Assembly (NCBI GenBank): GCA_035464095.1
Contig: DATHSO010000150.1
Span: 56,593-120,592 of the forward strand
Direction: 5' to 3'
Source of the DNA: Candidatus Methylomirabilota bacterium
Lineage (GTDB): Bacteria > Acidobacteriota > Thermoanaerobaculia > Thermoanaerobaculales > Sulfomarinibacteraceae
DNA length: 64,000 nucleotides
Shown: positions 3,765-56,065 of the stretch, in pieces
Layout of the letters: each line of letters opens with the position of its first letter
How positions within the stretch are numbered: the first letter of the stretch is position 1
Notes under the pieces: model-generated
What the model was told of the DNA's origin: nothing
Seen by the model: the letters and a program-made list of their open reading frames with translations, nothing else
The model's database searches: none
Position numbers and translations under genes: made by a program

Positions 3765-4840
3765 TGAGCCGCTTCGAGACCACCGACGACCTTCTCAACG
3801 GGATCCTCGAGGGCAAGGTTCCGCGCCAGGTGCGGCTGTTCGCCGCCCAGGGCCTGCTGCCGATCTCGCGCGAGGACCTGTTGCGCCTCCAGGTGCTGCT
3901 CTCCACGGACCCCGACACCGAGCTCGCGAAGGTCGCCGAGGCGTCGGTGGCGGAGGTCGAGGAGGCGACCCTGGTCGACTGGGTCAAGAGCTACACGCAC
4001 CAGCCGGTGGAGCTCGACCTCCTGGTGAGGCTTCGGGACGAGGACTCGATCTGGGCGGCGGTGGCGACCAGCCCCGAGGTCTCCGACGAGACCCTGCGGG
4101 TGCTGGCCAAGAACGGCGGCAACGTCGTCCAGGACATCATCATCACCAACCAGGTGCGGATCTTCAACTGCCTCGAGATCCTCGAGGACCTGAGGGCCAA
4201 CCGGCACATCGCCGACACCATCCTGCGCCGGGTTCGAGAGTTCGAGGAGGAGTTCCTCGAGAAGGCACTGGCAGCGGAGGGGGCCCTCGGCGGGACCGAC
4301 GCACCGAACATCGAGGAGGCCCTGGCGGCGCTGCGCCTGATCGGGGCCCACATCCCGGCCCTCGACCGCCTTCCCTACCAGCGGCCGCACGAGGATGCGG
4401 GCCTGCAGGAAGCGGTGGGGCTGCTCGGCGGTGGCGACACGGCGTTCAGCCGGCTGCTCAAGATGAACATCAAGGAGAAGGTGATCTGCGCGCTGAAGAG
4501 CAGCCGTGAGGAGCGCGCGATCCTCATCAACTCCCGCAACCGGCTCGTGGTGCGGGCGGTGCTGGCGTGCCCGCGGCTGTCCGACGGCGAGGTCGAGGTC
4601 TTCGCCGGCTCGCGCACCGTCGACACCGAGGTGCTCCGGATCATCAACCGCAACCCGCGCTGGACCAGGCGCTACCAGGTCGCCCTCCAGCTGTGCCTCA
4701 ACCCGAAGACCCCGGTGGAGATCTCCATGCGCCTGGTTCCCAGGCTCAACACCCGCGACCTCAAGCGCCTCGCCATCAACCGGAACGTCAACCCGGTGGT
4801 GCGGCGGTCGGCCCAGAACATCGCCCAACGGCGCCGCTGA
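3764..4840 (+). CDS. hypothetical helical-repeat protein, paralogous tail to ORF 1920..2681
   Basis: 358-aa ORF start-coupled to the rodZ-like stop. No recognisable catalytic motif. Confidence 0.6.
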   Translation: MSRFETTDDLLNGILEGKVPRQVRLFAAQGLLPISREDLLRLQVLLSTDPDTELAKVAEASVAEVEEATLVDWVKSYTHQPVELDLLVRLRDEDSIWAAVATSPEVSDETLRVLAKNGGNVVQDIIITNQVRIFNCLEILEDLRANRHIADTILRRVREFEEEFLEKALAAEGALGGTDAPNIEEALAALRLIGAHIPALDRLPYQRPHEDAGLQEAVGLLGGGDTAFSRLLKMNIKEKVICALKSSREERAILINSRNRLVVRAVLACPRLSDGEVEVFAGSRTVDTEVLRIINRNPRWTRRYQVALQLCLNPKTPVEISMRLVPRLNTRDLKRLAINRNVNPVVRRSAQNIAQRRR

Positions 4841-5644: not shown

Positions 5645-6457
5645 GTGGCCATCAACCCCAACCGCGTCATCGGCTATCGGCTCGAGTCCGCAGGCGCGAC
5701 CGACGTCGGCCGCAAGCGCCAGCTCAACGAGGACGTCTTCCTGACCGACGAGTCGCTGGGCCTCTACCTGGTGGCCGACGGCATGGGCGGCCACGCCGCC
5801 GGCGAGGTCGCCTCCCGCCTGGCGGCCGACGAGATCTTCCGCACCCTCGGCGGGCGCGGCGGGAGCGTGGAGGAGACCTGGCCGGAGCACTGGGACCGCG
5901 ACCGCAGCGTCACCGCCAACCTGCTGGTGGACGCGATCCTGTCCGGACACGAGCGGGTCACCAACGCCGTCAACCGCGACGCCAACCTCAAGGGGATGGG
6001 CACAACCGTGGTGGTCGCGGTGCACCCGCCGGCGAGTCGGCACCTGGTGGTGTGCCACGTCGGCGACAGCCGGGCCTACCGCTGGCGCCGCAGCCAGCTC
6101 GAGATCCTGACCGAGGACCACTCCTGGGTCCACGAGCAGGTGGCTGCGGGCTTCCTGTCCGAGGAGGCCGCCCGCAACCACCCCCTCAAGAACGTGGTGA
6201 CCCAGGCCCTGGGAGGCAGCGCCGAGCCCAAGGTGGACATCCTCGAGACCGAGATGATGCACGGCGACCTCTACATGCTGTGCTCGGACGGGCTCAACTC
6301 GATGCTCACCGACGAGGAGATCGCCGACTTCCTCGCCCGGGCGGACAACCTCGACGAGTGCACCGGCCGGCTCATCGACGCCGCCAACGAGCGGGGCGGC
6401 AACGACAACGTCACCGTCGTCCTGCTCCGGGCCTGCCAGATCACCCCGAAAGCCTGA
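5645..6457 (+). CDS. PP2C-family Ser/Thr protein phosphatase
   Basis: Motifs DVGRKRQLNEDVF, LVADGMGGHAAGEVAS, GDSRAY and GGNDNVTVVL. Confidence 0.9.
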   Translation: MAINPNRVIGYRLESAGATDVGRKRQLNEDVFLTDESLGLYLVADGMGGHAAGEVASRLAADEIFRTLGGRGGSVEETWPEHWDRDRSVTANLLVDAILSGHERVTNAVNRDANLKGMGTTVVVAVHPPASRHLVVCHVGDSRAYRWRRSQLEILTEDHSWVHEQVAAGFLSEEAARNHPLKNVVTQALGGSAEPKVDILETEMMHGDLYMLCSDGLNSMLTDEEIADFLARADNLDECTGRLIDAANERGGNDNVTVVLLRACQITPKA

Positions 6458-6607
6458 AGCTCCAGGCCCGACCGCCCAGGCCACCGTCGTCCGAGCCCGG
6501 CGATCGAGCGTCCACCACCCGGCAGGGCAGGGGAATGGTCGGGCCGGGTCCGAGGTTGCCGCAGTCGAGCAGGCGCCGCCGGAGCGCCGCCAACGAGGTG
6601 CACGCCC

Positions 6608-8293
6608 ATGGCCGACTTCCATCTGCCGCCATCACCGCAGTTCTCCGGCGTGCCCGGGCCGCTGCTGCTCGTCATCCTCGACGGGGTCGGGCTGTATCGC
6701 GGAGCCGCCGAGGGCTACCCGGCCAACGCCTTCGACCTGGCCGCCACGCCGAAGCTCGACCGCCTTCTCGCCGCCGCGCCCGTGCGGCTCGAGCTCAAGG
6801 CCCACGGCACCGCGGTCGGGATGCCGTCGGACGCCGACATGGGCAACTCGGAGGTCGGGCACAACGCCATGGGGGCGGGCCGGATCTTCGCCCAGGGGGC
6901 GAAGCTGGTCAGCGACGCCATCGCGGCGGGCACCATCTTCGCCGGCCCGGTGTGGCGCGAGCTGGTCGAACGGGTGCGCGACGGCGGCGGCACCTTCCAC
7001 CTGATCGGGCTGGTCTCGGACGGCAACGTCCACAGCCACATCGACCACCTCGAGGCCCTGATCCGCCGCCTCGCCGGGGAGGGCGTGCCCAGGGTCCGCC
7101 TCCACGCCCTCGCCGACGGCCGGGACGTGGACCCGGTCACCTACCACCTCTACCTGGAGAGGCTGGAAGCCGTGTTCGACGAGCTTCGGGCGGGTGGCTG
7201 CGACGTGGCGGTGGCGTCGGGCGGCGGCCGGATGGCGATCACCATGGACCGTTACAACGCCAACTGGGAGATGGTCCGGGTGGGCTGGCAGACCCACGTT
7301 CTCGGGCGCGGCCGGAGCTTCCGGTCGGCGGCGGAAGCGGTGGCGACCCTGCGCGCCGAGCGCCCAGGGGTCATCGACCAGGACCTTCCCCCGTTCGTGA
7401 TCGAGGACGGCGGCGGCCGGCCGCTCGGGGAGATCGTGGACGGCGACTCGGTGGTGTTCTTCAACTTCCGCGGCGACCGCGCGATCGAGATCTCCCGGGC
7501 CTTCACCGAGGACGACTTCCGATTCTTCGACCGGGAGCGACGCCCGGAGGTGGCCTACGCCGGCATGATGCAGTACGACGGCGACCTCCAGATCCCGCCC
7601 CGGTACCTGGTGGAGCCGCCCGCCATCGCCCGGACCGTCTCGGAGTACCTGGTCCACAACGGCGTCGCCCAGCTGGCCACGGCCGAGACCCAGAAGTACG
7701 GGCACGTGACCTACTTCTGGAACGGCAACAACTCCGAGAAGTTCGACCCGGCGCTGGAGGACTGGGTCGAGGTGCCGAGCGACGTGATCCCTTTCGAGCA
7801 GGCGCCGGAGATGCAGGCCGACAAGGTGTGCGGGGTGGTGGTGGATGCCCTCGCGAGCGGCCGCTACCGATTCCTGCGGGTCAACTTCGCCAACGGCGAC
7901 ATGGTCGGCCACACCGGCGTCCTCGAGGCCGCGGTGACGGCCATGGAGGCGCTGGACCGGTGCGTGGGGCGGCTCGAGGAAGCGGTCGCCGAGGCCGGTG
8001 GCACCATGATCGTCACCGCGGACCACGGCAACCTCGAGATGATGTGGGAGGTGGACCGGGCCACCGGCCACGTCAAGCTCGACGGCGACGGCAAGCCGGT
8101 GGTCAAGACCAGCCACACCCTGTCGCCGGTGCCGTGGCTGCTGGTCGGCGAGCGCGCCGACGAGCTCGTTCCCAACCCCGAGGTGAAGGCACCGGGGCTC
8201 GGCAACCTGGCCGCCACCATCCTCCTGCTCCTCGGCTTCTCCGCCCCGGCCGACTACCTGCCGCCCCTGGTCGTCCCCAAGGCTGCCGGGTGA
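6608..8293 (+). CDS. gpmI: 2,3-bisphosphoglycerate-independent phosphoglycerate mutase
   Basis: Motifs MGNSEVGHNAMGAGR, SDGNVHSH, NGDMVGHTG and ADHGN. Confidence 0.9.
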   Translation: MADFHLPPSPQFSGVPGPLLLVILDGVGLYRGAAEGYPANAFDLAATPKLDRLLAAAPVRLELKAHGTAVGMPSDADMGNSEVGHNAMGAGRIFAQGAKLVSDAIAAGTIFAGPVWRELVERVRDGGGTFHLIGLVSDGNVHSHIDHLEALIRRLAGEGVPRVRLHALADGRDVDPVTYHLYLERLEAVFDELRAGGCDVAVASGGGRMAITMDRYNANWEMVRVGWQTHVLGRGRSFRSAAEAVATLRAERPGVIDQDLPPFVIEDGGGRPLGEIVDGDSVVFFNFRGDRAIEISRAFTEDDFRFFDRERRPEVAYAGMMQYDGDLQIPPRYLVEPPAIARTVSEYLVHNGVAQLATAETQKYGHVTYFWNGNNSEKFDPALEDWVEVPSDVIPFEQAPEMQADKVCGVVVDALASGRYRFLRVNFANGDMVGHTGVLEAAVTAMEALDRCVGRLEEAVAEAGGTMIVTADHGNLEMMWEVDRATGHVKLDGDGKPVVKTSHTLSPVPWLLVGERADELVPNPEVKAPGLGNLAATILLLLGFSAPADYLPPLVVPKAAG

Positions 8294-9367: not shown

Positions 9368-11320
9368 GTGAGCCGCGCCGGACGGCGCTGGATCCGGCGC
9401 CTGACCGGGGTGCTCATCGTCGCCTTCCTGGCGGTGGTGGCGTTCATCGGCTGGGACCGGACCCGAGGCAACGGCAGGGGGGGGGCGCTGTTGGGCCCCG
9501 ACGCGGCGGATCTCGACGTGGCGGAGGTGGCGGTGGGGCTGTACCGGGGCTTCCGCCACACCGAGACGTTGAAGGGCGAGCCCCTGTTCATCCTCGACTC
9601 TCTGAAGACCCTGAGCCTGGCCTCCGGTTGGCAGGAGATCGAGGGGGTGCGGCTCCAGCTTTACCGGGACGGCGAGGAGGGTCCGGTGCTCACCGCCGAG
9701 CGGGCCTCGTTCAACATCGAGAGCCGGGACGCCCGCCTGGAGGGCGGGATCCACGTGGAGTTTCCCAGCGGCGCCTTCCTCAACACCGAGGCTGGCCACT
9801 TCCGAGCCAAGACCCAGGTCTTCGACTCGGAGGCGCCGGTGCTGTACGTGGACGGCCCCACCTTCGGCCAGGCGAGGCGGGCGAGCTACGACCTGGCCGA
9901 GAACCGGATTCTGCTCGAGGGCAACGCCGCCTTCAGGGCCGATGACGGCACCCTGCTGACGGCCCCCGAGATGGTCTACCGGCGGGACGAGAACCGGGTC
10001 CTGATGGCGGGCGGAGTGACCCTGACCCGGGGGCCTTCCAAGGTCGTGGCGCCGCGGGCGGTGGTCGAGCTGGCGCCGGACGACGGCCCCCCCAGGGCCA
10101 TCCAGCTGCTCGACGGGGTCAGCGCGACCACGATCGAGGAGGGGGGCGGCGCGCTGGTGACGATGCAGGCCGAGCGGGTCGTCGCCGAGATCGACGCCGG
10201 AGGCAACTGGCAGGTGGACGCCCGGTCCAGCGGGCCGTGGGTGGAGATCCGCTTCCTGGGCGGTCCGGGCTACTACGAGCGGGTCATCCAGACCATGGTC
10301 CTGGGGGCCGTGGTGGGGGAGACCGGACTGCTGAGCCTGCAGGCGGAGCGCGGGATCTGCCTCTTCGAGGTGCCGGAGGAGGGCCCGGCGCGGCGAGGCG
10401 AGGCGCAGACCGCCCGAGCGTGGTTCCGCGACGGGCTCATGACCGACGTCGAGCTCGACGGCGAGGTCGAGCTGGTCGCCGGGCCGCACACGGTCCACGC
10501 GGCCCGCGCGCGCCTCGTCCAGGCCACCGGCCTGGTGATGGTTCAGGGCGACCCCACCGGCGCCACCCGGGTCCGAGTGAGCTCCGAGCGCGGACAGATG
10601 ACCTGCGACCAGGCCAACCTCTTCGATCGGGAGGGCCGGGTCGAGGCCCGCGGCCAGGTCAACGGGGAGCTCCACGAAGCACGCCTCTTCGGCTCGGCCG
10701 GGGCTCCGGCCGACGACGAGCCGGTGCGCTTCGCCGGCAACGTCGTCGAGCTCACCGACGGCGGCGCCACGACGGTCCTGCGCGACAATGCCCGCGTCTG
10801 GCAGGGCCAGCGGCTGCTGCTGGCGGACAGCGTCATCTACCGGCAGGACGCCGAGGCGGTGGCCGCCCGCGGCCACGTCCGTGCCACCTTCCCCGCCGAC
10901 CAGATGGACCCGGAGGCCGATGCCGGGCAGGACGTGGTGGTGGTCTCGCGGGCCCTCGACTACGAGGCCGCCCAGCGGCGGGCGGAGTTCCGGGGCTCGG
11001 TCCGCTACGCCGACCCCAAGCACTCCCTGTCCGCCAACCGGATGACGGTGACCTTCGACGACAACGACGAGATCTCGGACGTCGAGGCCGAGGGCGCGGT
11101 GGAGATCAACGACCTGGTCGGCGGCCGCCGGCTCACCGGCCAGCACGCCCACCGCGAGCTGGCGACCCAGGTGATCACCGTCACCGGCTCGCCGGCCCAG
11201 CTCATCGACGAGCGGGGCAACGTGGCCTCCGGCGACTCGTTGACCTGGAACCAGGCCGATGGTACGGTCTCCATCGGCGGCGGCAGCGAGCTCATCTACT
11301 ATCCGGAGGAGACACCCTGA
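9368..11320 (+). CDS. membrane-anchored LptC/LptA-like (OstA-type) LPS-transport protein, apparent fusion or expansion
   Basis: N-terminal TM anchor followed by repeated OstA-like beta-jellyroll signatures. Lies directly upstream of lptB-rpoN, the position of lptC-lptA in the canonical locus. Confidence 0.65.
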
Positions 11321-20140: not shown

Positions 20141-20251
20141 GCGCGGCCGGGACGCCGCCGGCGGCTCCCCCTGGAAAAGACCTGAGAACGGAATCGCCGG
20201 CCGGCGACGTCGACGCGCCTGTCAGTCGCATGACCTCGCCGTGAGGTGACT

Positions 20252-20450
20252 TGCAGTGGCAGTTCCAGCGGCCGTGAACGATCGCCCGCGCCGGAGCGGG
20301 CGTCTCACCTCGATCCCGATCCCGGTCCCGATCCCGGTCCCGAACGGCCCGGGTCCGGGTTCGAGTCCGGTTGCTGCCGCTACCCCTGCCGATGCCACTG
20401 AATCTGATACTGCCACTGAGTCTGCCACTGTCACTGCCGCTGTCTCCTGC
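20252..20450. repeat. left repeat complex of the four-helix-bundle cassette (element E2)
   Basis: GCAGTGGCAGT fragment 20252..20262; 19-mer GTGAACGATCGCCCGCGCC 20274..20292; (GATCCC/GGTCCC)x5 20312..20342; degenerate CTGCCR units 20373..20450. Confidence 0.85.
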
Positions 20451-20586
20451 TACGGCCCCGCCGGCATGATCACCTCCGGGCCGTTCCTGGCGGCGGTGGT
20501 AGTCGCCGGGACGTTCCGCGTCATGGGCGCCCGACCACCCGACCTCCCTTGACCCGGAACGCCCCGGCGACTCGGGGGAGAGGGCC

Positions 20587-20955
20587 ATGAACGACCCGGA
20601 GGTGACCATGCACGACAACCGATCCGGCAACGAGCTCACCGCCCACCGCAAGGCCGTCGAGGCCGCGGGTATCGCCATCAGCCTCGTCCCACGGCTACCC
20701 GCCCATCTCAGGAGCCTCGCCGACCAGGTTGTCCGGTCCGCCTCGTCGGTGGCCGCCAACCTCGCCGAGGGCCAGGGCCGATTCGGGAAGGACCGCGCTT
20801 ACCATTGGCGCATCGCGTACGGCTCCGCTCGAGAGGTCGACACCCATCTCAGGCTCCTGATCGGTGCGGGTGCCGCCGATCGAGCCCTGACCGCGATCAG
20901 CCTCTTCGACGAAGTGCGAGCCATGACCTGGCGGTTGCTCCATCCCCAGCTCTGA
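20587..20955 (+). CDS. four-helix-bundle protein (23S rRNA intervening-sequence protein family; Avd-like)
   Basis: Motifs QVVRSASSVAANLAEGQGR and RIAYGSAREVDTHLRLL match the family signature (R.A.S...NIAEG..R; A.GS..E..T.L). SD GGGGAGAGG lies upstream. Confidence 0.8.
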   Translation: MNDPEVTMHDNRSGNELTAHRKAVEAAGIAISLVPRLPAHLRSLADQVVRSASSVAANLAEGQGRFGKDRAYHWRIAYGSAREVDTHLRLLIGAGAADRALTAISLFDEVRAMTWRLLHPQL

Positions 20956-20978
20956 CGCGGCCTGGTCGGCGTGCCGCA

Positions 20979-21003
20979 TTGTGGGGCCGGCGGCTCGCCG
21001 GCC
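20979..21003 (+). other. conserved 25-nt motif with 8-bp GC stem-loop downstream of the four-helix-bundle ORF
   Basis: TTGTGGGGCCGGCGGCTCGCCGGCC is identical to 45424..45448. Stem GGCCGGCG / CGCCGGCC with a 3-nt loop and no U-tract. Confidence 0.85.
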
Positions 21004-21025
21004 TCGCCCGGGCGTTCCGGACCTT

Positions 21026-21136
21026 AGTGACAGTCACAGTGGCAGTGCCAGTGGCAGTGGCAGTGGCAGTGGCAGTGAACAGTCGCCCGCGCCGCTGCCG
21101 CCGTCCACCTCTCCCACTCCTTCTCGCTCTCCCTCG
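21026..21136. repeat. right repeat complex of the four-helix-bundle cassette (element E2)
   Basis: (AGTGAC/AGTGGC)x~9 at 21026..21077 is the reverse complement of the CTGCCA unit. It is followed by the 19-mer GTGAACAGTCGCCCGCGCC 21075..21093 and a CT-rich run 21103..21136. Confidence 0.9.
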
Positions 21137-32866: not shown

Positions 32867-32971
32867 CCCCTCTCCTTCTCTCTCTCCCTCTCCCTTTCCG
32901 TCTCCCTTCGCGGGCGGGCTGGTTATCGCAAGGGAGAGGGAGAGAGAGAAGGAGAAGGAGCGGGAGAGGGG
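32867..32971. repeat. CT-rich / GA-rich inverted-repeat hairpin (element E3)
   Basis: Left arm CCCCTCTCCTTCTCTCTCTCCCTCTCCCTTTCCGTCTCCCT 32867..32907 and right arm AGGGAGAGGGAGAGAGAGAAGGAGAAGGAGCGGGAGAGGGG 32931..32971. The 23-nt loop contains TTATCGCAAGG. Confidence 0.9.
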
Positions 32972-40157: not shown

Positions 40158-40196
40158 GCATTCTACCACCAGCGCTTCGCGCGGGTGGTAGAATGC
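40158..40196. repeat. 12-bp perfect hairpin with 15-nt loop
   Basis: GCATTCTACCAC ... GTGGTAGAATGC. Each arm contains TAGAAT/ATTCTA, a possible -10 element for the minus-strand COG2403 gene. Confidence 0.8.
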
Positions 40197-40205
40197 TAAA
40201 TTCTC

Positions 40206-40318
40206 AATTATGAATTATGAATTATGAATTACATCGCAAGGGCGGCGACGTCTTCGAGAGCAGTTCACAGGATCAGTGCCCGCCATTCATAATTCATAAT
40301 TCAAAATTCATAATTCAC
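40206..40318. repeat. AT-rich heptamer foldback (element E4)
   Basis: (AATTATG)x3.9 at 40206..40232 and its complement (CATAATT-type)x~5 at 40285..40318 flank a 52-nt GC-rich core. Strong AT island in a GC-rich genome. Confidence 0.9.
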
Positions 40319-41916: not shown

Positions 41917-42536
41917 GGGTTTTAACCGCGAAGACGCAAAGATCGCGAAGCCATCGCAGACATCGCATTGTTAACGCAGAGGCGCAGAGACATCGCAGAC
42001 ATCACAGCTCAACGCAAAGGCGCCAAGGCGCAAAGACGCAAAGACATCGCAGCCATCGCAGGGAGTGTGGGCGGCGGAGTCGGCGGCGGTTCGGAACCGC
42101 CGCCACCGCGACGGCGTGCGTCCGATCCGAACACGGGTGTTCGTCCCGGCCGCATGCCGTCCCGGCCCGCTGTGCTCGGAGCACAGCGGCTCCGCCTCGG
42201 TGACACGTTGCCTTCACGTCATGCCGAGTCGGGCGTCCCGGGCCTGTCGAATCCTCGGGGAGCCCTCGGAGATCGACCTTCGGGGAATGCCAACCCGGAC
42301 CTCAGTGCCGCACCGTCGGGCCTCACTCCGGACCGCGGGAGAGCGACGCACCGTCGACCGTCAGACCCGCACGCTCCCGAGCTGCGATGCCCTCGGCACC
42401 ACTGCGTAGGTCTGCGATGGGCCAGAAATGCGATGGTGCGATGGCTCTGCGGCTCTGAGCCTCTGCGTTGAAAATGCGATGTGCGCGATGACCTTGTGAT
42501 GTCTTCGCGTTCTCCGCGTCTTCGCGGTTCAACCCC
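41917..42536. repeat. ~620-bp foldback element with ~150-nt word-repeat inverted arms (element E6)
   Basis: Left arm 41917..42063 and right arm ~42382..42536 are imperfect reverse complements built from the words CGCGAAG, CCATCGCAG, GCGCAGAG and ACGCAAAG. Termini are GGGTTTTAACCGCGAAGACGC / GCGTCTTCGCGGTTCAACCCC. Confidence 0.85.
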
Positions 42537-45062: not shown

Positions 45063-45092
45063 GTCATCAGTAGTGAGTGGTGAGTGTCGGAC

Positions 45093-45182
45093 GGTGCCAG
45101 GTACGGCGACTTGACAAACACGCCAAGAACCACGCCACCGCTGCATCGATGACGAGTTTGTCAAGTCGCCGTACCTGGCACC
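45093..45182. repeat. perfect 27-bp inverted repeat with 36-nt loop
   Basis: GGTGCCAGGTACGGCGACTTGACAAAC (45093..45119) and GTTTGTCAAGTCGCCGTACCTGGCACC (45156..45182). The right arm lies within the decayed four-helix-bundle reading frame. Confidence 0.95.
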
Positions 45183-45405
45183 CTCGGAGATCGTCCGATC
45201 CACGGGACCGGGGCACGGGAGGGCCGGGAAGGATCGGGCGTACTACTTCCGCGTCGCCTTCGGCTCCGCGAAGGAGGCCGAGACCCACCTCGGGATTCTG
45301 CTCACTGCCGGTGTTATCGATCGCGGCCAAGCCATTCGCGCCCTCCGGCTCTTCGACGACGTCCGCGCCATGACTTGGAGGCTCCTTCCCCCTCACCCTG
45401 AACTT
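45115..45405 (+). pseudogene. decayed four-helix-bundle (IVS-protein family) gene remnant
   Basis: My frame-1 translation gives ...PSEIVRSTGPGHGRAGKDRAYYFRVAFGSAKEAETHLGILLTAGVIDRGQAIRALRLFDDVRAMTWRLLPPHPEL, colinear with ORF 20587..20955. It has no ATG/GTG/TTG start, a shortened NIAEG region, and an upstream in-frame stop at 45112. Confidence 0.7.
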
Positions 45406-45423
45406 GCGCACCCGGGACGCTCG

Positions 45424-45448
45424 TTGTGGGGCCGGCGGCTCGCCGGCC
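45424..45448 (+). other. second copy of the conserved 25-nt stem-loop motif
   Basis: TTGTGGGGCCGGCGGCTCGCCGGCC, identical to 20979..21003 and in the same position downstream of the four-helix-bundle homology. Confidence 0.85.
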
Positions 45449-45451
45449 AAC

Positions 45452-45665
45452 GGGTGAACGCACCCGGAGCCGGAGCCGGTGCTGGTCGCTGACGCCGGTC
45501 GCTGACGCTGGCGCTGGTTGCTGCCCCTGATCGCTGGCGCTGATCGCTGATGCTGATCGCTGATGCTGATCGCTGACAGCTGGTCGCTGTCATCGGGTGC
45601 GGGCACCCGGCTCCGCCTTCGGCTTCGCCGTGCCAAGCGGACGCGGACGCGGACGGGGGAAGGCC
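45452..45665. repeat. right repeat complex of the decayed cassette (element E5)
   Basis: GGTGAACGCACCCGG; (GGAGCC)x2; GCTGGTCGCTGAC/GCTGATCGCTGAT units 45481..45592; GCACCCGGCTCC; (GGACGC)x3 45638..45657; GGGGGAAGGCCGGG. Confidence 0.85.
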
Positions 45666-50087: not shown

Positions 50088-50847
50088 CCTCGGCTTCTAT
50101 CAGCTCCCCACCTACGGGGTGCTCGTGGCCGCCGCCGTGCTGGTGGCGCTGTGGACGATCTATGCCCGGGCCGAGGGCGCCGGCATGGACGCCCCCCGGG
50201 TGGTGGACTTCGCGCTCTGGCTGGTGGTGTGGGCGCTGCTCGGGGCGAAGATCCTGCTGGTCGTCGTCGAGTGGCGCCGTTACCTGTCGGACCCGGCCCA
50301 GCTGCTCGGGCTGGTGCGCGCCGGCGGAGTCTTCCTGGGCGGTTTCATCGCGGCCGTCGCCGCCGCCGTCATCCTGCTGCGCCGCTACCGTCTCGAGGCG
50401 CTTCCGACCTTCGACGTCATCGTGCCGTCCCTGGCTCTCGGCCAGGCCATCGGGAGGGTCGGCTGCCTCATGGCCGGCTGCTGCTGGGGCAGCGCGTGCG
50501 AGCTGCCCTGGGCGGTGACCTACAGCGACCCCGCGGCGGCGGCCAATGTCGGCACGCCGCTGCACGTGGCCCTCCATCCCTTCCCGGCCTATGCGGCCCT
50601 CTTCAACTTCAGCCTCTTCCTGGTTCTGAGCCTGCTCCACCGCAGTCGTCCGGCGCCCGGCCGGGTCTTCGCCACCTACCTGGTGCTCTACGGCGCCGGG
50701 CGCTTCCTGCTCGAGCTGACCCGCGGCGACGCCGCCCGCGGGCTCTACTTCGACGGGCTGCTCTCCACCAGCCAGCTCATCACCGCCGCCCTGGTGGTGG
50801 TCGGGATCGCCATGCACTGGTGGATCGGCCGCCGCGGGAGCGCATGA
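50068..50847 (+). CDS. lgt: prolipoprotein diacylglyceryl transferase
   Basis: Motifs YGVLVAAA, GRVGCLMAGCCWG and YGAGRFLLELTRGD. Confidence 0.9.
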   Translation: MHPILIDLGFYQLPTYGVLVAAAVLVALWTIYARAEGAGMDAPRVVDFALWLVVWALLGAKILLVVVEWRRYLSDPAQLLGLVRAGGVFLGGFIAAVAAAVILLRRYRLEALPTFDVIVPSLALGQAIGRVGCLMAGCCWGSACELPWAVTYSDPAAAANVGTPLHVALHPFPAYAALFNFSLFLVLSLLHRSRPAPGRVFATYLVLYGAGRFLLELTRGDAARGLYFDGLLSTSQLITAALVVVGIAMHWWIGRRGSA

Positions 50848-51797
50848 GCCGGCTGCTGCGCTTCACCGTCCCCGACAGCCTGGCCGGGAGCCGGCTCGAC
50901 CGCTGCCTCGCCGCCCTCGAGGAGCCCTGGTCGCGGTCGCGGGTGCGGCGGCTCGTCGACGACGGCCGGGTCACCCACAACGGCCGGCCGGCAAAGCCGG
51001 CGACCACGGTCGCCGCCGGGGACGAGCTGGTGGTGGACGAACCCGACGTCGAGCCCCTGGACGTGGTGGCTGAGGCCATCCCCCTGACGGTGGTCTTCGA
51101 GGACGACGAGATCCTGGTGATCGACAAGCCCGCCGACCTGGTGATCCACCCCGCCGCCGGCAACCCCTCCGGGACCCTGGTCAACGCCCTCCTCCACCAC
51201 TGCCGGGACCTGTCGGGGATCGGCGGGGTCGCCCGTCCCGGCATCGTCCACCGCCTCGACAAGGACACCACGGGCCTCATGGTGGTGGCCAAGACCGACC
51301 GCGCCCACCAGGCCCTGGCCCTGGCCTTCCGCTGGCGCAAGGTGACCAAGACCTACCTGGCGGTGTGCTACGGCTCGCCGGCCGACGACGAGGGCGTCGT
51401 CGACGCACCCATCGACCGGCACCCCCGGGAGCGCCGGCAGATGGCGGTGGTCGCCGACGGCCGCCCGGCGCGGACCCTGTACTCCGTGGCGGAACGCTGG
51501 CAGGGGGTCTCGCTGCTGCACTGCCGGCTGGTTACGGGCCGCACCCACCAGATCCGGGTCCACATGGCCCACGTCGGCCACGCCCTGGTGGGCGACCCCC
51601 TCTACGCCGGGCGGCAGTGGCGGAACGTGCCCGATCCTCGGGCGCGGGCGGCCTGCCGGGAGTTCCCGAGGCAGGCGCTGCACGCCATGCGGCTCGCGTT
51701 CGCGCACCCCGTCAGCGGCGAGGTCCTCGAGCTCGAGGCGCCGCCGCCGGCCGACCTGCAGGGCCTCATCGACCTCCTGCGGCGCGCGGGGGGTTGA
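50844..51797 (+). CDS. rluD: 23S rRNA pseudouridine synthase, RluD family
   Basis: S4-like N-terminus, then GIVHRLDKDTTGLMVVAK and TGRTHQIRVH. The ATGA overlaps the lgt stop. The stop codon lies inside the terminus of the foldback element at 51790. Confidence 0.9.
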   Translation: MSRLLRFTVPDSLAGSRLDRCLAALEEPWSRSRVRRLVDDGRVTHNGRPAKPATTVAAGDELVVDEPDVEPLDVVAEAIPLTVVFEDDEILVIDKPADLVIHPAAGNPSGTLVNALLHHCRDLSGIGGVARPGIVHRLDKDTTGLMVVAKTDRAHQALALAFRWRKVTKTYLAVCYGSPADDEGVVDAPIDRHPRERRQMAVVADGRPARTLYSVAERWQGVSLLHCRLVTGRTHQIRVHMAHVGHALVGDPLYAGRQWRNVPDPRARAACREFPRQALHAMRLAFAHPVSGEVLELEAPPPADLQGLIDLLRRAGG

Positions 51798-52389
51798 ACC
51801 GCGAAGGCGCGAAGGACGCGAAGCCATCGCAGTCATCGCAGAGCCATCGCAGGCATCGCAGGTTGAACCGCAAAGACCGCGAAGAGCGCAACGCAGGGCA
51901 CGCGAAGACATCGCATTTCTGAGCCATCGCAGGCATCGCAGGCGTCGCAATCACGAAGACACCGAGACACGAAGAAATTTGATCGTGGCGGCGGCGGCTC
52001 GCCGGTGGTCGCCGGCGATGCCGATCACGTAACCGTATCCTCCGTAGGCGGGTCGTTGACGACCCGCGACCACCGACGTGGAGGGGGCCGGTGGCGTCGG
52101 TCGAGACCGCGGGCGTCGTGGCCGCGGGGCCTGAAGACCCCGCCTACGGGGAGGGGCTGCCGGGTTCGTGGTGTGGTTGCCGGATCGGCCTTGAGGGGTC
52201 GGGATCGGGACCCTCCTACTTCGTGTGCGACGTCTTCGTGATTTCGTGTTTCAAACTGCGATGGTTGCGATGGCTCATTCCTGCGATGGTGCGATGGACT
52301 CTGCGCCTCTGCGCCTCTGCGCCTCTGCGCTGAATGCGATGGCTGCGATGGCTGCGATGGCTTCGCGTTCTTCGCGTCTTCGCGGTGAC
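51790..52389. repeat. ~600-bp foldback element, same family as 41917..42536 (element E7)
   Basis: Left arm 51790..~51978 starts GGGGTTGAACCGCGAAGGCGCGAAGG. Right arm ~52219..52389 includes (CTCTGCGC)x4 and (GCGATGGCT)x3 and ends GCGTCTTCGCGGTGAC. The arms are imperfect reverse complements. Confidence 0.85.
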
Positions 52390-52413
52390 TGGGCGGGCGG
52401 GGGCGCCGGCGGC

Positions 52414-53511
52414 TCAGAACCGGCCCTCGAGGGTGCCGGCGTAGCCGGTGAGCTCGGCGTAGCCCTCGCCGCCGGTGGTGCCGGAGGCCTCGACGGGCCC
52501 CTCCCAGTAGACGACGCCGGTGGTGGCGCGGCCGTCGAGCTCGGCCGACGGGAGCAGGGCCTTCACCTCGAGGTCGATGGCGTGGGCCGGGACCCGAAGG
52601 CGCCACCGGATCGGGTAGCGGCCGCCGGTGGCCGGGCTGGTCCACCACTCGAGTGGCGCGAGGTCGACGTCGTCGCGGTCGAGGCGGGTCGTGCCGCCGT
52701 CGGGCCCGACCAGGGTTCCCGAGGAGTAGGGGTCGGCCGACCCGTCGGCCCGCCGCAGGCGATAGACCATGAGGTCGCGGCCGTCGGCCAGGCGCAGGCT
52801 GAACCAGTCCCAACCGACCACGCCGGCGCCGAGCTGGGAGGTTCCCCACTCGTGGTCGAACCAGGCCGTGCCGGTGACCGTGACGCTGGCGCCCGCAACC
52901 TCGATCCGGCCGCCGACGGCGAGCCGGGTCCAGCTCAGGTAGGCCGAGGCGTTGCCGGGGTCGGCGCCCTTCCGGGAGTAGCCGTCGAGGCCGTGGAGCA
53001 CCAGGGGCCGCGTCGGTCGGAGCTCGAGGTCGAGGCCGATGGCGGCGGCCGGGTCCCGGGCGTCGACGGTGATCCTGCCGTCCGGTCGGCGGCGCATGCT
53101 CCAGTCCTCGAGCCAGACCTTGAGGTCGTCCGTCGCCGCGCCGGCGAGGCCGCCGGCCCACCGGCGCAGGCGCTCGGCGTGGTGGAAGCGGCCGGCGTCG
53201 ATCTCGGCCACCGCGATGTGGGCGGCGGCGATCTGCCGGGCGCGCAGCTTCGACTCGCCCGCCGGGGCGTCGCCGGGAGCCATGCCCTGGCGGAAGAAGG
53301 TGACCTGGAAGCCGTAGCGCTTGCCGTCGTCGCCGTCGAGCAGCCCGGTGACGTACCACCACTCGGTGCGGTGGGCGGGGTGGGCGCCGTGGTCGCGGGG
53401 GAAGACCAGCTCGGGCGGGCCGGTGACCTCGAGCCAGGCGGGTCCCTCGGCCGCCGCGGAGGCGCCGACCAGCGCCGCGAGGAGAAGCCACGAAACGGTG
53501 AAGCGAGCCAC
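52414..53511 (-). CDS. AttH/CrtC-like lipocalin-domain protein (ABC-transporter associated)
   Basis: Motifs FPRDHGAHPAHRTEWWYVTG, GFQVTFFR and AWFDHEWG. Signal peptide present; the GTG start abuts the permease stop. Confidence 0.75.
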   Translation of the reverse strand: MARFTVSWLLLAALVGASAAAEGPAWLEVTGPPELVFPRDHGAHPAHRTEWWYVTGLLDGDDGKRYGFQVTFFRQGMAPGDAPAGESKLRARQIAAAHIAVAEIDAGRFHHAERLRRWAGGLAGAATDDLKVWLEDWSMRRRPDGRITVDARDPAAAIGLDLELRPTRPLVLHGLDGYSRKGADPGNASAYLSWTRLAVGGRIEVAGASVTVTGTAWFDHEWGTSQLGAGVVGWDWFSLRLADGRDLMVYRLRRADGSADPYSSGTLVGPDGGTTRLDRDDVDLAPLEWWTSPATGGRYPIRWRLRVPAHAIDLEVKALLPSAELDGRATTGVVYWEGPVEASGTTGGEGYAELTGYAGTLEGRF

Positions 53512-53512
53512 C

Positions 53513-56065
53513 TCAGCCCTCCTCGCGCAGGGCCGCGGCGGGCTGCATCCGGGCAGCCAACAGCGCCGGTGGCAGGCCGGCGACCAGGCAGGCCGCCACA
53601 ACCCAGGCGGCCATCTCGGCCAGGGAGGCCCAGGGCAGCACCAGCTCGAGGGACCACCCGAAGGACTGCAGGTTGACCACCTTCACCAGTACCACGCCGA
53701 CCACCAGCCCGACAGCGGACCCGGCCCCGGCGGCGGCGACGCCGAGCAGGCCCGCCTCGGCCACCACCATGGCCGCGAGCTGGCGCCGGGAGCCGCCGAT
53801 CGCGCGCACCGTGGCGAGCTCCCCTCGCCGCTCCACGACCAGGGTCAGGAGCACCGTCAGAACCGCCACCACCGCCACCACCGCCGCCACGAGGTACATG
53901 GCGGTGGTGATGGCGAAGGTGCGCTCGAAGGCGGCGAGGACCGCGCCTCGGAGCTCCCCAGCGACCAGGGCCTCGACCAGGAATCGCCCCCGCGCCGCCT
54001 CCATCAGCTCTGATCGGGCGGCCTCGGCGTCGCTTCCGGGGGCTAGGAAGAGGGCGATGTCGTCGGGCCCGAGCTCGGGGAAGAAGCGCAGGAAGTCGGG
54101 GCGGTCCACCACCACCAGGCCGTGGGACCTGGAGTAATCGCGGAAAACGCCCACCACCTCGCGCTCGAGCGCCCCGCCCGGCAGCTCGAGGCGAACGGTG
54201 TCCCCGACCCCGATGCCGAAGCGGGTCGAGAAGGGCTCGTTGACCACCGCTCCCCGCCGCTCCCAGGCCTCCTGGAAGACCTCGGCGGACTCCCGGCCCG
54301 GAAAGGGCACGCTGCCGTGGTGCCGGACCACGTCGAAGGCGGCGCCGGCGAAGCTCACCGGCCGGCCCCGGTAGGGGACGGTCACCTCGTGGAAGGGGTC
54401 GACGGCCTCGGCCCCGAACATCCCCTCGAGGAACGGGACGAGCTCGGGGTCGAGGCGACCGACCCAGGCCCCGGTGTCCGCCGCCATCGGCCGGACCCAG
54501 ACGTCGGCCCGCATCCCGGCTTCGGTCCAGTCTTTCACCGTCGCCCGGAACGAGCTCACCATGGTGGCGATGGCGACCGCGAGGGCCACCGCCACGGCCA
54601 CCGAGCCCGCCGCCCACGCGGCCCGCCGCCGCCCCGCCGACAGCGCCGCCGCGGCGAGTTGGAGCGCAGCCGAGTGGAGCCGGGCCAGGGGCAGGTGGCC
54701 GAGGCGGGCGAGGGTGTCGAGGAGCAGGCCCGAGCCCACCAGCAGGGTCGCCATGAGCACCAGCGCCGCCACCAGAGCCGCCACCGGCAGTCCCCACAGC
54801 ACCGGCAGCCGCACCAGGACTGCCGCCGCGGCCGCCATGGCCAGCAGGGCGGCGAGGGTGATCAGCCGGGTGCGGTTACCAAGCTGCTGTGGCGTCGTGG
54901 AGCGCAGGCCCTGAAGTGGCGGGATGCGCATCACCTCGGCCAGCGGCAGCACGGCGGCGGCCAGGGCCGTGACCACGGCGACGGCGAGGCCGGCGGCGGC
55001 GAGGCCCGGGTCGAAGCGGATCTCCGAGGCCGGGATGCCGCGCACCACCGAAGCGACGGTGAAGCGGACGCTGGTCAGGGCGAGGCGAGCGCCGCCGAAG
55101 CCGGCGGCAACACCCAGGGCGCCGCCGATCAGGCCGAGGGCGAGGGCCTCGCCCAGGACGGCGCCGGCGATCCCGCGACGGGACGCGCCGAGGGAGCGCA
55201 GCAGGGACACCACGTAGCGCCTCTGGACCACCGAGGTCGCCAGGGTCGTGGCCACCAGGACCCCCCCGACCAGGAGCGAGATCGACGACAGCGCCACGAG
55301 GTTGAAACGCAGGGACGCCAGGATCTGCTCGGCGAAGCGGCGGCGCTCGCCGGGCTCGGCGACCGTCACGCCGCCGGGCAGCATGGCGGCGGCGCGCTCG
55401 CGGAGATCCTCGAGCTCGGCGCCGGCGCGCGGCACCAGCTCGATGCGGTCGAGCCGGCCGACCCGGCCGAGCAGCTCCTGGGCGGCGGCGACGTCCACGA
55501 GGAGCACCCGCTCCCAGACCGCCGACAGGCCCTCGGCGGGGAAGGTGCCGGCGACCTCCACCGTCGCCGGCCGGCCGTCGGCCGACAGGGCCAGGGCATC
55601 GCCCCGGGCGACCCCGAGCTCGCGGGCCAGCGGCTCGGACAGCAGGGCGCCGGAGCCGAGCAGGATCGCTTCCAGGTCGGGCACCTCGGCGTCGCCGGCG
55701 AGCACCGGCCGTACCTGGTCGTCGAGGAGCAGGTCGACGCCGAGGAGACGGACCCCGTCGCCCAGGTCCAGCAGGAGCACTGAATCCTCGACCACGGGCA
55801 CGACGAGGGCGTCGCCGGACAGCGGCCGCAGGGCCTCGAGGAGCTCCTCGGGGAGGCCGCCGGGGCGGGTGACCTCGAGCCGGGCGGCGCCGGCCACCTC
55901 CACGATCCCCTCGGCGAAGGAGGCGACGGCGGCGCGGCTCGCAGCCACGGTGGAGATCACCGCCGCAACCCCCGCAGCAATGCCGACCACGGTGACCAGG
56001 AACCGCCACGGCCGGCGGGCCAGGGGGCGCAGGAGCAGGGCCTTCAGGATCATCGCCGCCGCCAA
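53513..56065 (-). CDS. ABC transporter permease, double FtsX/MacB-type
   Basis: 850 aa with two FtsX-like 4-TM modules separated by large periplasmic regions. Confidence 0.8.
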   Translation of the reverse strand: MAAAMILKALLLRPLARRPWRFLVTVVGIAAGVAAVISTVAASRAAVASFAEGIVEVAGAARLEVTRPGGLPEELLEALRPLSGDALVVPVVEDSVLLLDLGDGVRLLGVDLLLDDQVRPVLAGDAEVPDLEAILLGSGALLSEPLARELGVARGDALALSADGRPATVEVAGTFPAEGLSAVWERVLLVDVAAAQELLGRVGRLDRIELVPRAGAELEDLRERAAAMLPGGVTVAEPGERRRFAEQILASLRFNLVALSSISLLVGGVLVATTLATSVVQRRYVVSLLRSLGASRRGIAGAVLGEALALGLIGGALGVAAGFGGARLALTSVRFTVASVVRGIPASEIRFDPGLAAAGLAVAVVTALAAAVLPLAEVMRIPPLQGLRSTTPQQLGNRTRLITLAALLAMAAAAAVLVRLPVLWGLPVAALVAALVLMATLLVGSGLLLDTLARLGHLPLARLHSAALQLAAAALSAGRRRAAWAAGSVAVAVALAVAIATMVSSFRATVKDWTEAGMRADVWVRPMAADTGAWVGRLDPELVPFLEGMFGAEAVDPFHEVTVPYRGRPVSFAGAAFDVVRHHGSVPFPGRESAEVFQEAWERRGAVVNEPFSTRFGIGVGDTVRLELPGGALEREVVGVFRDYSRSHGLVVVDRPDFLRFFPELGPDDIALFLAPGSDAEAARSELMEAARGRFLVEALVAGELRGAVLAAFERTFAITTAMYLVAAVVAVVAVLTVLLTLVVERRGELATVRAIGGSRRQLAAMVVAEAGLLGVAAAGAGSAVGLVVGVVLVKVVNLQSFGWSLELVLPWASLAEMAAWVVAACLVAGLPPALLAARMQPAAALREEG

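Follow-up and report, generated by a model that had tools for sequence, protein, structure and literature searches.

E51790, a foldback element on the rluD stop codon of a Sulfomarinibacteraceae genome, is probably a non-autonomous composite palindromic repeat

[quoted passage not shown] Correia elements are mentioned in PMC4853749, and MITEs have been reviewed in PMC3184786. In the case of the GTAG-tagged repetitive extragenic palindromes (REPs) and of the hairpin-forming REP doublets (REPINs), the signature consists of GTAG-tagged palindromes in inverted orientation (PMC3733652, PMC3116915). This work deals with a foldback element of ~600 nt, here called E51790, which occupies positions 51790..52389 of a 64,000-nt stretch of DNA (the window) from an organism deposited as a Candidatus Methylomirabilota bacterium and placed by GTDB in the Sulfomarinibacteraceae (assembly GCA_035464095.1, contig DATHSO010000150.1, positions 56,593 to 120,592). 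E51790 separates rluD from an AttH-like gene that is convergent with it, and a sister element, E41917, is found at 41917..42534 of the same window; the loci fetched for comparison are designated by L numbers. According to the data presented below, E51790 is probably a non-autonomous composite palindromic repeat, most similar to a MITE or to a bacterial interspersed mosaic element (BIME), rather than a gene or an RNA dedicated to regulation in the host.

The gap between rluD and the AttH-like gene measures 616 nt, and E51790 occupies all of it but 25 nt. An earlier note on this DNA had described the element as filling this gap and as the second member of a foldback family, and both statements agree with the data. 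The region 51785..52395 is predicted to fold as one long imperfect hairpin, with -367 kcal/mol compared to -281 +/- 8 for dinucleotide shuffles (z -11.1), and the outer arms (51798-51841 and 52343-52386; 44 nt) are 93% complementary, as expected for the terminal inverted repeats (TIRs) of a MITE. E41917, which has the divergent guaA on one side and on the other a gene that is Rex-like by eye only (no Pfam match), also folds strongly (z -7.9). Its arms are those of E51790 and can be aligned with them for some 120-150 nt per side; the cores, by contrast, do not align and are unrelated. Both elements have the same left terminus, as had been noticed before: the 15-mer GGTTGAACCGCGAAG, which spans 51792..51806 on the + strand, has exact copies at 51792(+) and 42520(-), and is repeated with one mismatch at 51861 and with two at 41919. 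The terminus TTGAACCGCGAAG is common to E51790, E41917, and 89 metagenome loci. On the other side, E51790 ends in ...CTTCGCGGTGACT, which is not the mirror of the left terminus GGTTGAACC, and the reverse complement of this end, AGTCACCGCGAAG, is a TTCAC-type variant known from other copies of the family. A truncated terminus was considered for the right end and rejected because AGTCACC matches the TTCACC variant present in L123, L124, and L134.

The arms of E51790 have a GC content of 58-65% versus ~77% in the flanking genes. The left arm is poor in T (A 30%, C 30%, G 30%, T 10%), and the right arm mirrors that composition. Two forward frames of the T-poor left arm are free of stop codons, which gives rise to a spurious open reading frame (ORF) of 185 aa (51365-51922; ...NREGAKDAK...), which ends ...GGLNREGAKDAKPSQSSQSHRRHRRLNRKDREERNAGHAKTSHF.

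When the copies are read side by side, the arms of the family appear as a fixed series of modules, each of them opening with a TT(N)AAC string to which one kind of word is joined, the words being of the form CRCNRAG, with 7-9 nt (CGCGAAG, CGCAAAG, CGCAGAG, CACGAAG), and CATCGCAG. Module 1 joins TTGAAC to CGCGAAG and then to CATCGCAG; module 2 consists of a second TTGAAC with CGCAAAG/CGCGGAG, followed by ...CATCGCATTTCTGAGCCATCGCAG; module 3 combines CTAAC or TTCAAC with GCAAAG/GCAGAG; and module 4 combines TTGAAAC with CACGAAG, next to which the core is found. In E51790, the outer left arm module (51798..51860, + strand) holds three CGCGAAG words and then CATCGCAG words, and the inner left arm modules (51861..51982, +) contain the second terminus GGTTGAACCGCAAAG at 51861, the block CATCGCATTTCTGAGCCATCGCAG, and CACGAAG words at 51952 and 51968. 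The inner right arm (52219..52298, +) is made of CTTCGTG words, GTTTCAAAC, and CTGCGATGG words, and the outer right arm (52331..52392, +) of (TGCGATGGC)x3, three CTTCGCG words, and the variant terminus GGTGACT. Between them stands the tandem array (CTCTGCGC)x4 (52299..52330, +). This array and (TGCGATGGC)x3.1 (52335-52362), both reported in the earlier note, are 100% matches. The note had also placed the complements of both arrays in the left arm, which holds for only one of them: CCATCGCAG occurs there three times, while GCGCAGAG is absent, with only CGCAGAG found once, at 51837.

The missing partner array has been retained elsewhere. The contig L120 (GCA_035466355.1), whose RluD is 97% identical, carries an orthologous element of ~680 nt (3951-4633; z -12.5) starting on the same rluD stop, and a second copy of 735 nt (5911-6645), with the same module order, is located ~1.3 kb beyond the first. 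The inner left arm modules of E51790 follow the order of both L120 elements, and its outer left arm module is 89% identical to that of L120. However, the arms of L120 mirror one another module by module, whereas those of E51790 are rearranged and not colinear, their modules being shuffled between left and right. The decay has been reciprocal, as the GCGCAGAG array is kept as repeats in the left arm of L120 and is gone from that of E51790, and the complementary (CTCTGCGC)x4 is kept in the right arm of the window element. Despite the 97% identity of RluD, the two orthologous elements differ by indels of 100 and 170 nt, and the comparison of their outer-arm pairs revealed eight broken pairs, one compensatory change, and two one-sided changes. 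With most arm pairs broken and indels of this size, the hairpin is a statistical consequence of both arms sharing the same words and not a conserved base-pairing scheme; a conserved RNA structure was rejected on the same grounds. E51790 evolves fast, by large indels, by gain and loss of arrays, and by inverted duplication.

A conserved core (52084..52232) is common to L120, with 83% identity over 149 nt and no indels. It is non-coding, because the differences are spread 11/7/7 over the three codon positions. The core ORFs 52005-52241 and 52091-52333 were considered as small proteins and rejected, as they show no Pfam match and no codon-periodic substitution. Two hairpins of the E51790 core, and only these two, have a GTAG directly adjoining a short GC-rich palindrome, as do REPs, in which the tetranucleotide may also be CGTC. 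The first one, GTAGGCGGGTCGTTGACGACCCGC (52044..52067, +), has an 8-bp stem with a 4-nt loop directly after the GTAG, and the second one, GTAGGCGGGGTCTTCAGGCCCCGC (52124..52147, -), also with an 8-bp stem, is inverted with respect to the first, thereby forming a REPIN-like doublet. They are the only two convincing copies of a GTAG palindrome in the 64-kb window. The second L120 element bears a pair of the same kind, with concordant changes in both halves of the stem (GGGCGGG...CCCGCCC versus GGGAGGG...CCCTCCC). An insert of ~100 nt (51991..52087, +) is specific to the window, the orthologous element of L120 being without it; the 3' half of the insert repeats 52118-52149 in inverted orientation with 78% identity (inverted repeat 52042-52073 / 52118-52149). 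On an unrelated metagenome contig (L191, 879-1235), a 123-nt unit forms a tandem array of 2.9 copies with 94% identity, and in each unit a looser GTAG-led GC-rich inverted repeat is joined to a GGTTGAACCGCGAAG arm without a complementary arm.

The gene on which E51790 begins, rluD (50844..51797, +), is the last one of lspA-lgt-rluD, a gene order that is likewise found in L120-L126 and L216-L218. It encodes a 23S rRNA pseudouridine synthase of 317 aa with the Pfam domains S4 and PseudoU_synth_2, whose best match is a 97% identical RluA-family protein assigned by NCBI to Candidatus Sulfomarinibacteraceae (Acidobacteriota, Thermoanaerobaculia). The protein ends ...RRAGG, and its stop codon TGA (51795-51797) lies inside the terminus GGTTGAACC, exactly as the earlier note had read it. 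From this overlap, the note had concluded that the insertion redefined the 3' end of the gene, a claim for which it proposed a comparison of RluD C-termini in relatives lacking the element. The DNA of eleven orthologous loci was compared. The site is empty, with no family words, in L216 (RluD 77% identical; ...AARG, GGC TGA gcgtctcgcag..., next gene after 64 nt), L218 (76%; ...GAVG, GGG TGA ggcgtcgccgg...), and L125 (70%; GGA TAA), the last of which ends ...RAAGG, the end residues of the window protein itself. On the contrary, L120 shows a full element (97%; GGT TGA ACCGCGGAG), L121 and L122 a decayed one (84%; AAG TGA ACCGCAATGG), L217 a hairpin of ~130 nt (75%; GGC TGA ACCGAAAGG...CCGCGGTTTGA), and L123 and L124 (78-79%; TGA) arm words that begin at most 16 nt after the stop, whereas L126 (78%; CGG TGA gcgtgggttcggtcaccgagg...) retains at most a decayed trace of arm words.

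Because the element-less orthologues L216, L218, and L125 keep the length and the stop with unrelated DNA after it, the stop position and the C-terminal residues of RluD are independent of E51790, and the protein has not been redefined. Exactly 317 aa is also the commonest length of RluD, being found in 41 of 121 sequences (120 homologues and the window's own). The TTGA of the terminus coincides with the third base of the last Gly codon and the TGA, and therefore leaves RluD unchanged. As the last Gly codon, GGT is restricted to the loci in which the terminus directly or almost directly adjoins it (window, L120, and L123), and the empty sites have GGC, GGG, or GGA. This distribution, drawn from few genomes, fits a scenario in which the TTGA of the element may have overwritten the wobble base and the stop codon of rluD, at most a synonymous change.

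The family is not restricted to this lineage. A scan of species-representative genomes with the 15-mer terminus retrieved at least 119 loci, most of them by chance, and about a dozen among the listed matches continue with family words. The titles of the metagenome-assembled genomes (MAGs) that carry these family words name Acidobacteriota, Chloroflexota/Anaerolineales, an oscillatorian cyanobacterium, Phycisphaeraceae, Verrucomicrobiota, Desulfobacteraceae, and Sedimenticola, and the groups covered are thereby Acidobacteriota, Chloroflexota, Cyanobacteria, Planctomycetota, Verrucomicrobiota, Desulfobacterota, and Gammaproteobacteria. Another Sulfomarinibacteraceae MAG carries a foldback of 594 nt. 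A stricter pattern yielded 89 metagenome loci with an identical 22-nt arm start, on contigs with a GC content of 46-74%, and 32 of these loci are complete hairpins of 82-277 nt ending CTTCGCGGTTCAA. A subfamily of ~200 nt with a conserved asymmetric core is found, in both orientations, inside the loops of outer small hairpins made of CGCCAAA words, and nesting is therefore a habit of the family. No family matches were found in viral contigs, phage records, or plasmid records. In the literature, no description was found of a family with these words, nor of PF05635 cassettes with tandem-word arms, although the coverage was incomplete and an earlier description may exist.

The overlap between terminus and stop codon was also examined in the metagenome copies with enough upstream DNA (75 non-redundant copies). 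In 20 of them an open frame of 100 codons or more ends at the terminus TGA, compared to 9 and 15 in the other phases, which is a weak skew. Nine of the ten frames tested correspond to real genes according to Pfam (GFO/IDH/MocA, 2-Hacid_dh, GH3, RsmB, RmuC, a hexapeptide transferase, GNAT, SpoU, and RluD), the RluD among them being only ~50% identical to that of the window. No convincing gene end was found among the 32 termini of an independent set, in which GG does not precede the terminus. Because nine cases have been verified with Pfam versus none in this independent set, the overlap is recurrent, well above random intergenic placement, but not universal. About one in eight of the sampled copies has a terminus TGA that serves a real gene as its stop codon.

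A rival reading is an RNA element selected by the host. Read from either of the convergent genes, the long hairpin would terminate transcription in both directions, stabilise the 3' ends of mRNAs, or be processed by RNase III, and it would be kept at the rluD stop in order to control rluD expression, for example through ribosome stalling at a stop-proximal hairpin, which has been reported for REPs of E. coli. Such a role would agree with the very stable fold in the window and in L120, with the location between convergent genes, with the persistence of words or hairpins at the rluD 3' end in relatives whose identity ranges from 75 to 97%, as well as in a distant RluD, and with the terminus TGA acting as the stop of a Pfam-confirmed gene in at least nine of 75 other copies. 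Nevertheless, it is an unlikely explanation, since the sister E41917 lies in a divergent promoter region and not at a 3' end, the outer-arm pairs are mostly broken (eight, versus one compensatory and two one-sided changes), indels of 100-170 nt separate relatives at 97% RluD identity, three orthologues (L216, L218, and L125) lack the element, and none of the 32 independent termini ends a convincing gene. Moreover, no Rfam family matches at gathering score in the window, where an E-value threshold gave noise only (E above 1), and no terminator-like site was detected on either strand of 51500-52700, nor any U-tract. The reading as an intrinsic terminator was rejected, as no short GC hairpin followed by a U-tract was found there.

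Beyond the element, gene order breaks. The AttH-like gene (52414..53601, -), with CrtC and Lipocalin_9 domains, is convergent with rluD, its stop being at 52414, and is not linked to the element in relatives; in L120, L121, and L123 the element is followed instead by Rieske and Biopterin_H (phenylalanine-hydroxylase-like) genes. Compared with L121 and L123, L120 has this pair in inverted orientation, bracketed by the two full elements (3951-4633 and 5911-6645); in L121, the pair is bracketed by an inverted repeat of 154 nt with 85% identity (3953-4106 / 5859-6012) that begins on the rluD stop codon. An inverted pair bracketed by repeats is what recombination between dispersed palindromic repeats produces, and the two genes look like an invertible or mobilised block. 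E51790 is best read as marking a rearrangement hotspot, or synteny break.

The features of MITEs are thus present in E51790, which is small (600 nt) and has no transposase ORF, its core ORFs being without Pfam match, and which belongs to a set of dispersed copies (two in the window and two in L120) with empty and filled rluD sites. Its hairpin modules are nested like a Russian doll around a core with two inverted GTAG-tagged REP-like palindromes. On the reading as a non-autonomous composite palindromic repeat, copies would spread by transposition in trans, by means of an enzyme encoded elsewhere. Slippage and arm-to-arm templated repair would alter the arrays and keep the arms complementary. 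Once co-transcribed with rluD, the hairpin may only incidentally become a barrier to transcription or translation, or a substrate for RNase III. As for the mobiliser, a single-strand, hairpin-dependent enzyme of the HUH type, similar to the REP-associated tyrosine transposases (RAYTs), may be guessed, with the loops of existing hairpins as favoured targets. That such HUH-type chemistry moves the copies is doubtful, though suggested by the hairpin-only architecture, the insertion into hairpin loops, the missing target duplications, and the GTAG palindromes associated with the element; no RAYT gene was found among the window ORFs scanned.

Several observations weigh against a mobile repeat. No transposase was found among the 46 window ORFs scanned, and neither an autonomous copy nor a cognate transposase was found, there being no long partnered copy among 200 loci. 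No direct repeat that could represent a target-site duplication flanks E51790, E41917, or the small complete hairpins inspected, although some right ends are TTGAA instead of TTCAA, which is ambiguous. For MITE families, it is unusual that arm words are identical from one phylum to another. E51790 or its remnants persist 3' of rluD in relatives from 97% down to 75% RluD identity, and at L159 (1-360) a distant RluD (~50% identical to the window's) ends ...RRG, GGT-TGA-ACCGCGAAG / ACCGCGAAGGCGCGAAGG, which reflects either independent targeting of rluD 3' ends or coincidence. Persistence at the end of rluD could point to a site-specific function or targeting as opposed to random selfish insertion. 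Finally, movement is inferred, as no compared pair of near-identical genomes differs by the element alone.

Two hairpin cassettes of the window carry ORFs of PF05635, the four-helix-bundle family of the 23S rRNA intervening sequences (IVSs). In the first one (20253-21105), an intact ORF (20587-20955) is enclosed by inverted arms that consist of CTGCCACTG / CAGTGGCAG words (50 nt, 76-83% complementary). On both sides of the whole unit there is a direct repeat of 52 nt (20253-20304 / 21054-21105; 81% identity), which contains GTGAAC..TCGCCCGCGCCG and might represent either a long duplication of the target or a site of recombination. In the second one (45087-45600), a truncated paralogue (~45130-45405) with 50% protein identity to that ORF is preceded by a 39-nt, 90% inverted repeat (45087-45125 / 45150-45188) overlapping its 5' end, and on its 3' side there are ~16 heptamers of the GCTGATC type (45481-45589). 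In an unrelated metagenome organism (L136, 6818-7417; L163, 7960-8463), a PF05635-like ORF lies between perfect 37-nt inverted arrays of GTACTGC, with the same variant unit in both arms, and a 138-nt CGCGAAG-type hairpin is found one gene away.

Both PF05635 ORFs of the window are followed by the identical 25-mer TTGTGGGGCCGGCGGCTCGCCGGCC (copies at 20979 and 45424), and the earlier note had recognised a diverged copy of it in E51790. The resemblance is real: the stretch 51983..52007 (+), which contains GTGGCGGCGGCGGCTCGCCGG at 51985-52005, is 20/25 identical to it, and local alignment of the E51790 sequence ATCGTGGCGGCGGCGGCTCGCCGG gives 21/24 in the same orientation, directly after the left arm. 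As 0-1 of 300 dinucleotide shuffles score as well (p ~0.003), the similarity exceeds chance. However, the motif is probably not an ancestral part of the element, as it lies in the ~100-nt insert missing from the L120 orthologue. Considering also that the cores of E41917 and L120 have no significant match in the same shuffle-tested alignment, and that E51790 bears no trace of PF05635 coding, the motif would be a recent acquisition of this copy and not a feature that defines the family. The core was also considered as a decayed four-helix-bundle gene, which was rejected on the negative tblastn results: the best E values with the window's PF05635 protein were 0.19 in E51790 and 1.3 in E41917, and Pfam found nothing.

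The motif raises the question of whether E51790 is an ORF-less derivative of these hairpin cassettes, in which loss of the ORF would leave arm, motif, core, and arm. The derivation is suggested by the identical 25-mer after the ORF in the window cassettes at ~20250-21105 (intact ORF) and ~45087-45600 (truncated ORF), by the perfect 37-nt inverted GTACTGC arrays around a PF05635-like ORF in the unrelated organism, by the 21/24 match in the same orientation directly after the left arm of E51790, and by the arm/core junction of L120, TTCGTGGGGCCG, compared with TTGTGGGGCCG in the cassettes. It is nonetheless improbable, given that no coding remnant is detected (best tblastn E = 0.19), that the motif sits in the window-specific insert, that the E41917 and L120 cores do not match significantly, that the arms of the cassettes are made of other words, without the TTGAAC terminus, and that strings of the GGCCGGCGG type are common in a genome of 71% GC, with 19/25 matches also at 11117 and 38249. 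An integron attC site or lone cassette remnant is very improbable and was rejected for its wrong box order and size, for although GTTGAAC and GTTCAAC pair with each other and each match 6/7 of the R-box consensus of attC sites (R'' RYYYAAC ... R' GTTRRRY, 57-141 bp, with extrahelical bases), and the size of small family members (68-140 nt) is one that attC sites can have, the order of the boxes is swapped, small members often have stems that are paired throughout, with no obvious extrahelical bases, E51790 is 600 nt long, copies are scattered singly, and the window holds no integrase or cassette array.

Other word arrays of the window may be mentioned. A hairpin of CCCTCT/AGGGAG hexamer arrays (32867-32971; 29 nt, 97% complementary, 33-nt spacer) lies between scpA and a gene of the RNase_H superfamily. 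Directly after the guaA stop, an AT-rich hairpin of AATTATG/ATTCATA heptamer arrays is found (40191-40317; 26 nt, 96% complementary) in this genome of 71% GC. Between an unassigned ORF and a RodZ-like gene, the region 2710-2855 holds a perfect (CTGCCA)x8.5, 13-nt CTG..GTCG repeats, and (CGGGCA)x4.7; no inverted partner was found for these arrays.

Returning to E51790 as a probable non-autonomous palindromic repeat, a broader reading of all these data can be proposed, which should be taken as speculative. The hairpins made of TT(N)AAC strings and CRCNRAG words would be one cross-phylum class of self-nesting mobile DNA, moved by an HUH or RAYT-like enzyme, which inserts into single-stranded hairpin loops and into ...GGN-TGA gene ends, with TTGA laid over wobble base and stop. 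This class would be evolutionarily linked to the four-helix-bundle cassettes of the 23S IVS type, and rluD 3' ends would be a recurrent target (two lineages, ~50% RluD identity).

The locus itself is of little consequence, since RluD remains the same and the element is probably a neutral passenger. More interest attaches to the family than to this copy, due to the presence of the 22-nt arm start in MAGs of at least seven phyla, to its nesting, and to the bracketing of an invertible block. Knowing the mover would explain a common origin of spurious short ORFs in the annotation of high-GC MAGs, namely the arm read-throughs, from which false short proteins likely arise, as well as local synteny breaks, and its description might provide a link between REP-like elements, MITEs, and those hairpin cassettes with PF05635 that are related to 23S rRNA IVSs.

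Among the known systems, the 23S rRNA IVSs and PF05635 (S23p) ORFs (PMC4990558) are hairpin-bounded inserts that, like E51790, would be RNase III substrates if transcribed; the PF05635 ORFs of the window lie in word-armed hairpins and share the 25-nt motif with E51790. However, E51790 is not in rRNA, has no ORF, and uses other arm words, and the link rests on a similarity of 24 nt. The eukaryotic Foldback (FB) elements (FB/Galileo/Tetris; PMC3573991, PMC4079207) have long inverted arms of short tandem repeats with variable middles, rapid change in arm length, and an association with inversions, as described here; they belong to another domain of life, homology is not expected, and FB elements have known transposase partners.

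The REP/REPIN/BIME elements mobilised by RAYTs (PMC3116915, PMC3733652, PMC2817692) resemble E51790 in the REPIN-like doublet of its core and in its BIME-like mosaic of motifs, and also in being extragenic, adjoining stop codons, and persisting vertically. In contrast to them, the 150-190-nt arms of E51790 are not REPs, the element is ten times as long as a REPIN, only two GTAG palindromes exist in the 64 kb, and no RAYT is encoded by the window ORFs scanned. With respect to the hairpin MITEs, E51790 differs in having no TA or other target duplication and no known parent insertion sequence, and its arms are nested modules of short words instead of one unique TIR, with a terminus and words that cross phyla. 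Nevertheless, it shares with the Correia elements the small size, the lack of ORFs, the terminal inverted repeats, and the many dispersed intergenic copies, which can be co-transcribed with their neighbours as hairpins and can serve as recombination substrates.

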